Shown here piece after piece: positions 4,788 to 63,500 of a stretch of 64,000 nucleotides of DNA. A program made the translations under genes and the position numbers. Under the pieces are notes generated by a model. It was given only the letters and a program-made list of their open reading frames with translations. It ran no database searches and was not told the DNA's origin. The stretch comes from Eledone cirrhosa (taxonomy: Eukaryota), in the NCBI GenBank assembly GCA_964016885.1, contig OZ024763.1, forward strand, positions 5,828,001-5,892,000, written 5' to 3'. How positions within the stretch are numbered: position 1 is the stretch's first letter; the number at the start of each line of letters is the position of its first letter.

Positions 4788-7700
4788 GTGAGTGGAACAA
4801 TTTTGGAGCTCTTTTGTTTTCTTCTTCTGTGTCACCGTATACTCATGATGTGTTCCTGTAATGTACCAGGGACAATTGACCCACTCTCAATGTTTGCCTC
4901 TGGATTGGAGGAAGATAACTGGGCCATGGCACTTGCCCAAGAGATCAGGACACTTGTGGTTTTTCACCCACTTATTCCTGAGCGGTTTGTTGGGGTAGAG
5001 CCCTTAAACACTCCTACCAGCAGGTCCTGTCAAAAGCAACCGTCTCCAACTGATCCGGCTGGATCCCTGTAATTGGAACAATCTCTCTTGACTCCCTTTT
5101 AAAAATTGGAATTATCACTCCCGATTGCCTTTCCAGGGATCCAGGTAACCTGGGACACACGAGTCAGCCAGAGAATACCTTTCCTTCGGGCCAGATTTGA
5201 TCTTCCCCACCAGTTTTGCCATGTTTGAACTCTTTTACTGCTCTTGTGACCTCAGCCTCAGGGAGATTAGTCACCGCTCCCAGATGTACCTTATGTACAT
5301 CCGAAGATGCTATGATCAGGTTTAGGAGATCAGTAAACAAAATGTTATTGTTACCTTTCTTTTTACTATTGTTAAACCTGTTTACACACAAACCCCGCAC
5401 ACCAGTATACACTCGCTCTGTTTTTTTGTCCTGTGTCGTACTAATGTTTCCTTAATGTAAACCCTTTGAGGTGAATAAAGAAATCATTATCATCATTATT
5501 ATTATTATATTTGCAGGTATAAATGTCATCGAGATTGTGCCAATAGAGCTCCCAACACTTGCAGCCTTTCTTCAAAGTATGGTGAGTCAACATCTTAACT
5601 TTCTTTCTTCACCATCATATATATATATATATATGTATATATATGTATATATATGTATATATATATATATATATATATTGTGTGTGTGCGTGATTCAGTG
5701 AATATCTGGCGGTGGTACCAATATAAGCACTCAATACACAGGCAGAGTGTGTATATTTTGAAAAACGATGAAGTTTTGTTTACATGTATTTAAGGTTTTA
5801 TTGTGCATCGACCTGTGACGTGTGTTTCACAGAGGATTGGCTCAGGGTCATCCGTAGAAGTTATAGGCCCGACTCCATTACCGATATGCTCTTCGATACA
5901 CAATGAAAACCTAAATAGATGTAAACTAAACTTCATTGTTTTTCTTAATATATATGTGTGTGTGTGTGTGTGTGTGTGTGTGTGTGTGTGTGTATATATA
6001 TATATATATATATAATGAAAGAAAAAGTTGAAAGAAGGTTCTTTACTCAGTTAATACTTTACAATTGTTTCAGCGAAGCCATGGATCGTTACACAGTTTG
6101 TTAGAAGGATAAGTTTATGTATAACATATGTAAAGAAGAATACATGGTAGTCTATATTTACTATTGTGTTTTCGTGGCAATAATGATTACATTCCTATCC
6201 CCCCTACATGATAACATTCCAACAATTTTATAAAATAAAGTACCAGTAACACACTGGGGGGTCGGATTTAATCAACTTAACCGTTCCCCAAAATTGTTGG
6301 TCTTGTGCCTCAATTACAAACCATATCAGGGTGGTAGATTAGCAGTAATTGGTAGAGCATTGACAACACGCGTTGTGGCATAGCTACGGCCCTTGACATT
6401 CTGCGTTCAAATCTCACCAAGGTTAGCTTTGTCTTTCATCCTTACAAGGTCGATGAAATAAAGTACCAGTAATGTACTGGGGTCGATTTGATCAACCCCC
6501 CCCCCCCCCTCCCCTCCCCTCCCCTCTCGAAATTGTTGACCTTGGAGCCTAAATCAGAAACCAGTGTTTTCTTTATGTATGTTATACACAAATGTATTCT
6601 CTTAGGTAACTGTGTATTGAACCATGGCAAAGCTGAAACATTTGTGAGGCATTAAGTTAAGAACCTGATTCAATCTCTCTTTAGAATATACTCTCTCTTT
6701 ACATCTAACTTTCTCTGTCTTATTCTTTAAAGAATCTCTCATTTCTTCTAACCATTATTACATAAACATATTGAGGTGTGTATAAAACTATTTGGCCATA
6801 TATACTCTTGTATAGCTCTCTACATACAAATAGAGCTATATATACACACACACTCTCACTCACACACAGACATACATAGACATACATATACACACACATA
6901 CACGCAGACATACATATACACACACATACACGCAGACATACATATACATACATACATACACGCAGACATACATATACAGACATACATAGACATACATATA
7001 CGCAAACATATATATACAGACATACATATACGCAGACATACATATACGCAGACATACATAGACATACATATACGCAGACATATATACGTAAAACGGTGAT
7101 GATGATGATATATACATACTCGTACAGCTTTCCTTTAAAACATGGAGAATCGTCACCTTCATATATACAGCTACATACATATATTCACAGACTTGCACCA
7201 CATACATTCACACACACGCACATATATATATATATATATACACATACACACACACACATTCCCTCATTCACACACATGCCCATACACACTCTCATACAAA
7301 CATGCACACACACACACATATATATAAATATACATATATATATACATACATACATATATATACACAGTCATTCACACACATGCCCATACACACTCATACA
7401 AACATATGCACACACACACACACACACAAATACACACACACACACACACACACATATATATATATATATTTGCACACTCACACACACATATATATATATA
7501 TACACACACACACACACACATATATATATATATACGATATTAAATAAATGGAAACTATATTTATAAAACCATATTTATTTCATTATACATATTTCAGGGA
7601 TACCAAATTAAAATATGGTATGCCTTCATCAGACAAAATACAATATATAAACAGTTTTATAAATAATTTTGACGTACCCTATTAAATGCAACCATTATTT

Positions 7701-60557: not shown

Positions 60558-63500
60558 TTTATAGCTTACATAGAATTTAAATCATATTACGGTTATATAT
60601 ATATATATATATCGTCCTTTCGACTGAGTGCTCTACCAACTTCGGATATAACCTCTCGGTTTTTTACCACTATATATATATATATTATTGTTTCATATAT
60701 CTCTCTTCTGTTTGTTGTTCGTGTTTGTTTATATAGATACTAGATAGTAAACATTCTACGTGTCACACCGACTGTGATGTCATGGCGTTTGCGTGATGGT
60801 GTTGTGGAGTGTTGTGATGTGGCGTATTGTGATGTTGTTTGGTGTCTGGTATGATGCAGCGTTGTGTTGTGTAGTATGTCTGATGTGGTAAGTGTTGTTC
60901 TTGTTGTGGTTTTCGTAAGTTGTAGCGTGGTGTGGTGTTGTGTGATCTGGTGTAATGTTGCGATGAGTTGATAGACGATCAGTCTTCGTAAATATTTATT
61001 TTTCACTCACTCAGACGTTATTTATATATATATATATATGTGTGTGGTGTGTGTTTATATATAGTTGTAATATGACACAAGCTGAAACCTCTTAGCGCAG
61101 TAGGAATTCTTTTATATACACATATATATATGTGTATATTTATGTGTGTATGTATATATATATATATATATATAGAGAGAGAGAGAGAGAACAAGAAGTT
61201 TATAATCGAATTTATTATTTAAAACCAAGTAAACTAACTTAGTATTAATTATTTAACACATTATTTTTTTTTGTTCTTTAATTAACTTGACACCGTTGTT
61301 CAAGGAATATAACTCTTGGTTAACTCTTTGCTGCAATTTGATTGGTTGAATTTGTTTTCTAACAAATTTAAATTTGTGTCCTCACATTTGTCACAATTAG
61401 CAGGTAAGAATTGGATATATTTCATTAACTAACGAATTATTAACACTAATTAGCTTGATATTACTATATATATATATATATAATTTCATTAATTAATATA
61501 TCCGAAATTTTATATTGTTGTCATAGGTGTTTATTCCAAATTACTGCAATTCTTGAAAATAGCTTGTAATTTTCGTCATAACATCATGTCTCTCACTCTT
61601 TATTTAAGGTTAAAAAGTGAGTCTTGTTACTCTGGAGTTTCGTCTGTTTATCAATTTTTCGCCTTAATAATATTGACTATTAAAACTTTACTTCAGTATC
61701 GAGTACTTCTTTCTCTCAGCCATCAACCACACATACATACATTTATAGGAAAAGAGTCAGGACCCCGACGGCTGAGTCCTGGCCGGCCGTTTCGACAGCT
61801 AGGTCCGAACTCATGTGTATATATATATCTATCAGACTTTTTCATCAGCATTTGAGTACTTTTTACACATCCTTTTTTTTTTACCATATTTCCAACAAAA
61901 TATATTATTCTGTGTTACAATTAGACTTTTGAATAATCTAAACTGTTGAAAGGTTTTATCAAAATAAACTTTTCATTGTTAGAACTTTACAAAACGTCCC
62001 TCAACTATAAACAAGATATTTTACTTTTACATGGAAAAGAGGAAGTTGGGGAAAAACCCGAACAACAGAAATTCTTACCTGCTTTAAAGCTACCTTTGTT
62101 TTATTTATACTTTTTTGCTTCCCGTGTTCTTTTTGTTTATCTCATACCTCCTCTAGTTTGTTTACTAGCTCTATACGGACGTTTGAAGTGATTAAATAGA
62201 TAAAGGTTCTTTCATAAAAGTACGATAGAAAGCTTCCCTAGTCTGTCATGACTTACTAGCTCTATACGTACGTTTAAAATGATTAAATAAAGATTCTTTC
62301 TTAAAACTACGATAGAAGGTTTAGATTTAAATATAAACATTTAAAAATGCGACAGTTTTGGGTTATCATTTTGGTTAAAGCATGGAAGAATCATTTTAAG
62401 CATTTATAAAAACGCACTCCAAAAACTGTTAAATTCACGGTAATATTGTAGAACCACCACCACCATTGATTTAATCGACTTTACCCTCGTCCCAAAATTG
62501 TTGGCTTTGGGTCTAAATCAAACCATTATTATGAACTAATATGTGTGTATGATGGGGGGGGGGGGATAAAATAAATAACAGTATCGCACTGGGGTTGATT
62601 TAATCGACTTTGCATGGTGTGAAGCGATTGAGAGTATAAGACACTCCACTGGATAGGACGCCAGGCCATCACAGGGTTAAAACCCCAGCTATTGCTGGTA
62701 CTCATTTTCAGCTGAGTATACAGGAGCAACATGAAATGAAGTGTTTTGCTGAAGAACACAACACGCAACCCAACCCAGGAATCGAACCCACGACACTAGG
62801 CCACGCTCCTCCACTTAACCTTTTAACATTTACATTACTCTATATATATTATTATATTTTTACGGTAAAAGCTTTACCTCACCTAAATATCCCACATAAT
62901 ATTGAATCTATGAGATTTTGATATTATTTATTTTGAGAACAATACCTTAACATCAGTATAAGTGGCTGGTTACAGCTGGTTTGAACAGAAAGAGGTGAGA
63001 GAGTTTTGGATGGGTATGGCCTAAATCAGAAACCATTATTAGTTCATTCTTCCAGTGTAGGGGGGGGGGGGTAAAATAAAGTACCAGTAATGCATTAGGC
63101 AGTGGATTGGCAGTATCAGTAGAGGGTCGGAGGCCATGCTTTGCAGCGTAGAGTTACAGCCCTTTATGATCTGAGTTCAAATCCTACCAAGGTAAACTTT
63201 GCCTGTCATCCTTACGGGGTCGATAAAATAAAGTACCAGTAATGCACTGGGGTCGATTTAATCGTCTTTCCCCTCCTCCCAAATTGCTGGTTTTTTGCCT
63301 ATATAAGAAACCATTATTATCAATTATCCATCAATTTCAGTGGGAAATAATTATTTTATAATTCATGTGATAATTAAATTTACCTGCAATTGATTATCTC
63401 CCCTGGAAAAAGGCAGGAACGTGGACTCTTCCTAATCCTTATTGATTTCTTAATGACAATCATCATCGTCATCATTTTACGTCTGCTTTTCCCTGTTTGC

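Follow-up and report, generated by a model that had tools for sequence, protein, structure and literature searches.

Short repeat insertions in the (TA)n tracts of the Eledone cirrhosa genome raise the question of what they are and what sets their ends. We analysed a window of 64,000 nucleotides (nt; positions 5828001–5892000 of contig OZ024763.1 in a 3.0 Gb assembly; 37% GC, rich in microsatellites), in which a sequence-only reading had listed 18 insertion sites. It described non-autonomous elements related to Penelope-like elements (PLEs), with hammerhead ribozymes, (TA)n targets and a common, recognition-like 3' motif, T(T/C)GAGT(A/G)CT ('TTGAGTRCT'). Insertion in or against (TA)n was borne out at 18 of 18 coordinates, and PLE kinship, hammerheads, targeting and motif were supported as well; the insertions are very probably the ends of PLEs. 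Their supposed lack of coding capacity was contradicted in the families that could be traced. We consider it probable that most of them are 5'-truncated, partly inverted 3' ends of protein-coding PLEs of the Hydra clade, and that the motif is one strand of a bulged hairpin, carried twice, which likely binds the reverse transcriptase–endonuclease (RT–EN) and sets two RT starts.

The evidence for coding capacity comes from elsewhere in the same genome. There, elements with intact open reading frames (ORFs) for RT plus GIY-YIG end, on the 3' side, in the sequences of families A, D, E and F2; a search for such autonomous elements with the same tails, proposed along with the sequence-only reading, found them for these families. 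Each has a single ORF of 709–735 amino acids (aa) with an RT plus a GIY-YIG EN at its C-terminus (A, 735 aa; D, 717 aa; E, 713 aa; F2, 709 aa), 30–38% identical to homologues over the full length. In extended family A copies, RT, CxCX5C linker, GIY-YIG, untranslated region (UTR), hammerhead and tail follow one another in the sense of the ORF. The family A RT query gave 52,351 first-look candidates, of which the 150 scored were 90–100% identical, and family A has close copies in the genome. The coding partners of E and F2 were recovered by a search with a foreign N-terminus, and the D ORF lies within tandem arrays of 3.5 kb units. Near-identical, head-to-tail and up to four units long, these arrays suggest recent activity. 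Family C runs into a decayed Hydra ORF in one broken copy only.

The Hydra clade of PLEs with a C-terminal EN, including Hydra-1_Obim with its (TA)n targets and hammerhead, was described by Craig et al. (2021; PMC8557442). The E. cirrhosa ORFs share its diagnostics, RWR (at 37–38), DKT (within SDKT at 114–117) and no GxKF, in 6/6 ORFs scanned, together with the CxCX5C linker and EN CxH in 6/6 and CxxC in 5/6, and no CCHH. Pfam gave neither an RT nor a GIY-YIG match in the three Hydra-type proteins scanned, and these domains were read from motifs. Also alike are the hammerhead in the pseudo-long terminal repeat (pLTR), on the sense strand in A, D, E and F2, insertion at (TA)n, the inverted truncated copy and the one-sided tail. 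The units are longer here, 4,234 nt from hammerhead to hammerhead in A (4.2 kb) and 3,531 nt in D (3.5 kb), and do not fit the published 'generally under 3 kb'; tails measure 65–92 nt against 30–40 nt. By diagnostic motifs and homologue alignment, A, D, E and F2 are assigned to the Hydra clade.

Two further families, M and I, appear from their motifs, which are of Neptune/Nematis type, to be young families of another PLE group. The coding partner of M has DKG, GxKF, a Cys-rich linker and a CCHH-type EN, and matches RVT_1 and GIY-YIG in Pfam. Family I has an EN end similar to that of M, and a similar ORF upstream. The tails of both are 40–42 nt long, with the start codon inside and no hairpin motif. 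Among the fetched loci, no ORF was tied to families H, J, K or P or to the copy at 11098, which may therefore be non-autonomous; in longer stretches around H, a Hydra-type ORF, possibly of another element, lay ~5.4 kb upstream in 1/4 loci.

The motif had been claimed as a linear 3' signal. It is common to the families, but it is one half of a hairpin and occurs twice, just downstream of each end. 'TTGAGTRCT' is the 3' strand of a bulged hairpin, RCTC-stem-loop-YN-GAGY-RCT, whose form recurs across unrelated families as RCTC, a variable stem-loop, a 2-nt bulge (TT, TA or TC), GAGY and RCT. The full-length order is ORF, 3' UTR, hammerhead, TA-like site 1, hairpin 1, tail, TA-like site 2, hairpin 2 and the ATG of the next unit. 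In family A, the tail continues into a diverged second hairpin and the ORF start in 8/8 long copies printed. For family D, the predicted tail plus hairpin 2 gave 328 matches against 0 for the reversed pattern, and most of 20 loci read on into the Hydra ORF start. The second-hairpin pattern matched twice in C and once in B, one match each being convincing (hairpin 2 plus ATG), in B in a single broken copy.

The twin arrangement extends beyond this genome. Of 78 Hydra-type loci fetched from metagenome contigs, 49 gave starts with 200 nt of upstream sequence, and these form 32 clusters. Counted by the best member, two hairpins are present in 18/32 clusters, one in 10/32 and none in 4/32; in 200 shuffles none had two. 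The hairpins are spaced 54–74 nt apart, and hairpin 2 lies 13–40 nt before the ATG. At the inner positions, 65/66, 47/61 and 35/43 were paired, where shuffling of partners reached at most 57, 40 and 27, the counts being anchored on 66/67 hand-picked hairpins with enough flank (MAFFT aligned the variable-length hairpins poorly). These inner pairs covary, with swaps C-G/T-A and G-C/A-T, and the base pair changes from G-C to A-T in this genome's hairpin 1. The main text of Craig et al. contains the word 'hairpin' 0 times and leaves the twin hairpin unmentioned, though its Ajap and Amil Hydra consensuses contain it. In its supplement, three GAGCACT 9-mers account for 6 occurrences; of the five shown, four lie at Hydra consensus ends and the rest inside other elements. 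We found no description of a twin hairpin or of twin priming in PLEs in the literature searched, which took in few subscription papers and part of this supplement.

The hairpins coincide with the insertion ends, which we scored on 373 de-duplicated matches to six references, family C included. TA tracts bound 249/373 matches, and 233/249 of these TA-joined ends fall 0–16 nt before hairpin 1 or 2, with modes at 5–9 nt; several metagenome copies, judged by eye, end at the same two points. TATA or ATAT lies 2–11 nt before 39/66 hairpins, against 3–9/66 in four flanking windows; site 1 of family D has only TATTA. By arm ends, the 49 inverted pairs divide into 40 of type 1+2, 2 of type 2+2, 1 of type 1+1 and 6 of site 2 plus another end, and because the loci were fetched with tail-containing queries, which enrich site 2 and hide 1+1 pairs, the fair contrast is 40 against 2. 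Hairpin 2 is missing from stubs that end at site 2. In the fetched copies that have an inverted arm, the outer end of that arm is mostly fixed and the 5' ends are variable, and central junctions were distinct in 17/17 (H), 14/14 (I), 11/11 (C), 6/6 (M), 15/17 (B), 12/14 (D) and 9/10 (A) copies, one B junction being common to two copies 0.4 Mb apart. Because the junctions are copy-specific, the fold-backs arise at insertion and are not propagated units.

We lean towards a mechanism in which the hairpins act as RNA and set twin RT starts. Its full form has, in our estimate, about an even chance: Hydra-clade PLEs would use a clade-wide twin bulged RNA hairpin as the binding and positioning signal of a dimeric, telomerase-related RT, and one RNA would be primed at both hairpins from the two (TA)n strands, giving tail and inverted copy in one step. 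A protein dimer on one read-through (or circular) RNA would nick both strands of the self-complementary (TA)n, each hairpin positioning one RT. Each 3'-OH would then pair with the short UA-rich stretch before a hairpin and be extended. Both cDNAs would stop early and be joined head to head into a fold-back, the one-sided tail corresponding to the hairpin spacing. Because the starts sit just downstream of the hammerhead, which would cut tandem transcripts, probably as a dimer, either a circle or a tandem transcript made by read-through would have to serve as template. The 1+2 asymmetry speaks for two priming events on a single RNA.

A biochemical analogy is PAc, a Poseidon PLE of Anolis (Frangieh et al. 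2024; PMC11167929), which starts reverse transcription at two internal sites bounding the tail, nicks and extends both strands, and is a predicted dimer. The two systems are alike in their tail-bounding starts, here inferred from copy ends, and in having an RNA signal, putative here, on the downstream side of the hammerhead. In PAc the starts are within the ORF, in an AC-rich stem-loop and without target homology (PMC11167929). Unlike these, the presumed starts here fall at TA-like sites of the non-coding leader, and a conserved bulged hairpin follows each one. In L1 twin priming, one RNA is primed by both strands of the target, and the resulting products join in inverted orientation; that process uses a chance internal site and yields an inversion without duplication. 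Here, both starts would have fixed positions close to the 3' end, and an inverted duplication would result.

Several points count against the RNA-hairpin mechanism. The search pattern imposed the base stem and left only the inner pairs free, the pair counts ignore relatedness of the hairpins, and the query bias noted above affects the pair types. On folding, the base stem was present in the minimum-free-energy structure of 88/106 sense sequences, 85 antisense and a mean of 80.6 inner-shuffled ones, showing no RNA preference, and the mean folding energy (-6.3 vs -6.4 shuffled) indicated no unusual stability. As a strand signal, the hairpins hold only 20 G-U against 9 A-C. The second hairpin of family E is a natural mutant (L244, L246), with a flipped GCAC/GTGC base stem, no bulge and no upper stem, and site 2 is still used. 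The fixed one-sided tail also occurs in families I and M, which are not of the Hydra clade and lack such a hairpin. Finally, published work lends support to EN action at the DNA level.

That work supports an alternative that we regard as unlikely, namely that the hairpins act as DNA. The GIY-YIG domain would recognise them in the cDNA or donor copy and cut a few bases off, so that the ends would reflect resolution of an intermediate, not two RT starts. Craig et al. ascribe the tail to EN-mediated resolution (PMC8557442), the EN of Drosophila virilis Penelope required the tail for plasmid cleavage according to Frangieh et al. (PMC11167929), and our folding tests do not separate the strands. This account fits less well with the two tail boundaries of PAc, which coincide with in vitro RT starts (PMC11167929). 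Also against it are the TA-like microhomology just before the hairpins, which fits primer annealing, and the C(UUCG)G loops (B hairpin 1, F2 hairpin 2) and small G-U excess, which suit RNA.

The hairpins might instead serve transcription or translation of the downstream ORF, the ends being set only by adjoining TA microhomology. Both hairpins do lie in the 5' leader, the second close to the ATG, and TA-like stretches precede them. We find this improbable. Although AT is abundant along the whole leader, nearly all TA-joined ends use two points that keep a short, fixed distance to a hairpin. In family D, TATTA is all that site 1 offers, and this account does not explain the 1+2 asymmetry.

Little credit, too, can be given to the view of the sequence-only reading, in which non-autonomous ribozyme retroelements are mobilised in trans through a common 3' motif. 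B and C, with ~2,600 first-look candidates each, gave just 1 and 2 second-hairpin matches, respectively, H, J, K and P are tied to no ORF, and short copies that keep hairpins might be re-mobilised if transcribed into flanking DNA. Against this stand the intact ORFs of A, D, E and F2, the coding partner of M, the copy-specific junctions with variable 5' ends, and the absence of hairpin 2 from site-2 stubs. Miniature inverted-repeat transposable elements (MITEs), which would have the terminal inverted repeats of a DNA transposon and duplicate a TA target, would account for inverted arms and TA flanks and are excluded for practical purposes by arms made unequal by a fixed tail, by varying centres and by sequence that runs on into PLE ORFs.

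In the window, 11/18 listed sites belong to families A–E: A at 7535, 49261, 52360 and 57935; B at 23920 and 61612; C at 5690 and 51300; D at 52195 and 61750, plus 54640, the window copies forming a sister subfamily of D; and E at 56960. The non-Hydra PLE group (M, I) accounts for 2/18, and 5/18 are Hydra-like in look but linked to no ORF: H (40097), J (48122), K (49075), P (58250-58640) and the 11098 copy. The features are as follows; three, marked as additional, lie beyond the listed sites.

5663..5966, minus strand: 3' stub of family C (Hydra PLE), with its hammerhead core decayed, hairpin 1 at 5748-5726, a tail that reaches (TA)n and a short inverted arm.
7527..8201, plus strand: family A fold-back; inverted arm to site 1; direct arm with hairpin 1 at 8113-8135 and an 82-nt tail to site 2; intact hammerhead cores at 7632 (minus) and 8008 (plus).
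11100..11562, minus strand: decayed Hydra-like stub with an EN C-terminal trace at 11562-11458 (E 0.49), hammerhead and hairpin decayed; zero relatives among fetched loci.
23925..24125, minus strand: family B fold-back, with cores at 24039 (minus, GAAA mutated) and 24052 (plus) and hairpin 1 at 23961-23939.
26838..27079, plus strand: family M, 3' end of a non-Hydra PLE with C-terminal EN (DKG, GxKF, CCHH-type EN); its minimal hammerhead has the variant core CCGAAGA and AAUU in helix III; ATG inside a 42-nt tail, no hairpin motif.
30362-30416 and 57790-57891: further pieces of family F2, the second one, like the fold-back at 40434, adjoining listed sites.
40107..40419, no strand assigned: family H fold-back with variant core, both arms ending at site 1.
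40434..40601, plus strand (additional): family F2 fold-back, core CAGAAGA; autonomous 709-aa ORF elsewhere.
48122..48395, plus strand: stub J, with a hairpin-type motif at 48328-48336 and no visible hammerhead; the fetched loci include a single distant relative.
49075..49240, minus strand: stub K, a short fold-back with the motif at 49123-49115; zero relatives among fetched loci.
49253..49703, plus strand: family A fold-back, cores at 49357 (minus) and 49510 (plus), hairpin 1 at 49614-49636.
51300..51646, plus strand: family C fold-back, hammerhead with a long stem II insertion, hairpin 1 at 51571-51593.
52196..52345, plus strand: short fold-back of family D (sister subfamily) without core, hairpin 1 at 52262-52288.
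52351..52593, no strand assigned: family A inverted arm (core at 52457, minus), deleted direct arm and tail.
54111..54410, minus strand: family I fold-back, a non-Hydra PLE akin to M, with a 40-nt tail; cut before the hammerhead, no hairpin motif.
54639..54800, no strand assigned (additional): rearranged D-like stub.
56964..57121, plus strand: family E fold-back, core deleted, hairpin 1 at 57062-57083; autonomous 713-aa partner elsewhere.
57930..58222, minus strand: family A direct arm with tail, core at 58122.
58400..58640, no strand assigned: old fold-back of family P, core at 58529 (minus), decayed hairpin near 58577 (plus); 58250-58395 falls outside the assigned families.
60612..60675, plus strand (additional): tail stub of family Q with a CT-bulge hairpin.
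61599..61748, plus strand: family B fold-back without core, motif at 61699-61707.
61745..61811, minus strand: D-like inverted arm to site 1.

The H copy has neither tail nor hairpin because both its arms end at site 1; other H copies have them. Few counterparts, one or zero relatives among fetched loci, were found for J, K, 11098, 58250-58395, 61830 and the 26600 palindrome.

The layout that the insertions had been said to share is present in part. The exact motif lies in the tail at 8/18 sites (5690, 7535, 48122, 49075, 49261, 51300, 52195 and 61612) and a variant or decayed one at six (11098, 23920, 52360, 56960, 57935 and 58540); it is absent at 26838, 40097, 54115 and 61750. In the window as a whole the exact 9-mer, with 10 matches, is above chance (200 local shuffles gave 1.3 on average and at most 6); looser versions are not above chance, with 10 matches (shuffle mean 5.5, maximum 14) and 11 matches (shuffle mean 5.4, maximum 13). 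The distance from motif to (TA)n, given earlier as 40–70 nt, measures about 30–61 nt in the families compared. The absence of an intact ORF holds within the window, where the weak EN trace at 11562-11458 is the only coding trace, and fails for the families.

The hammerhead folds were likewise found, though in fewer families than the number of copies suggests: a strict descriptor gave eight perfect-core loci, six of them from family A alone, against 0 loci in reversed sequence and 0 in each of 6 shuffles. The other two, at 48428 and 54509, fall outside assigned families and may be chance. At 48428-48462 (plus strand), the perfect core comes directly after a TA/GT tract, and its stem I needs G-U pairing to the GT repeat. 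The core is gone from many copies in the window (52195, 54115, 56960, 61612 and 61750), and none was seen at 48122 and 49075. An Rfam scan of the window gave no hammerhead among 104 matches at E<=1. The top matches, microRNA (miRNA) models on fold-backs and microsatellites, were below gathering scores and were rejected. Short self-complementary stem III loops are present as proposed: families H and M have AAUU, and family A has AUGU. Of the metagenome segments, 26/45 have a poly(A)-like hexamer between hammerhead and hairpin 1, by a loose definition and with no control set, a result that speaks neither for nor against the AATAAA-like signal of the sequence-only reading.

Where folds were parsed, family cores are canonical in A and E, U3-A8 in D and U4A in F2. 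Family-wide non-canonical cores occur in F2 (CAGAAGA, L261), H (CCGUCGA, L322), I (CCGUUGA, L340) and M (CCGAAGA, L370); they may be active variants or dead ribozymes. Family D (L271-L287, L297) has the core UUGAGAA (U3-A8 swap) and a 54-nt stem II region. Minimal and dimeric PLE hammerheads, with circular templates proposed, were described by Cervera and de la Pena (2014; PMC4209133). Our copies resemble these in their palindromic helix III, opposite-strand pairs 100–700 bp apart and, in D, the U3-A8 core, to which the F2, M and H/I (CCGUYGA) variants would be candidate additions. Non-LTR retrozymes, non-coding type I hammerhead repeats from PLE pLTRs (bioRxiv 10.64898/2026.07.22.740005), are tandem direct repeats of a fixed unit; the copies here are single stubs or fold-backs with variable junctions. 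On the ORF links and variable junctions, we rejected a retrozyme reading together with the MITE one.

Other features of the window concern its repeat content. A large palindromic family with a TA-rich centre, in tail-to-tail layout, occupies 26440-26786; it is a top Rfam miRNA false match and has no relative among fetched loci. Another TA-joined family lies at 27099-27400 (minus strand), with 13 matches among fetched loci and, at 27325, a match to the motif that is ~225 nt away from its TA tract. The same 48-bp minisatellite forms three dispersed arrays at ~95% identity (3564-4608, 24475-24951 and 53079-53838). Different families are stacked end to end in many fetched loci (for example L003, L010, L138 and L311), since every insertion, in splitting a (TA)n tract, creates further target sites. 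Exon-like open stretches on the plus strand (12032-13378, 21483-21750 and ~27950-28110) presumably resemble a KSR/Raf-type kinase (N-lobe, catalytic-loop region). Pfam gave no match on two pieces of these; if the exons are real, many of the window insertions would be intronic.

The elements are new members of a published clade with known structure. For PLEs, truncated copies in inverted orientation, one-sided tails and pairs of hammerheads on opposite strands have been published (PMC8557442, PMC4209133), and the twin hairpin and the 1+2 rule are, as far as the literature searched goes, a new feature of Hydra PLEs. The origin of PLE tails and inverted copies is named as open by Craig et al. (PMC8557442), and here a conserved structure of 25–35 nt predicts both ends to within a few bases, giving exact mutations for an existing in vitro system. 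In practice, the hairpins can be used to locate true ends and to assign orphan stubs otherwise called MITEs, miRNA-like hairpins or non-autonomous families. If the RNA-hairpin mechanism is true, the group of RTs closest to telomerase would have in them a defined element for RNA recognition.

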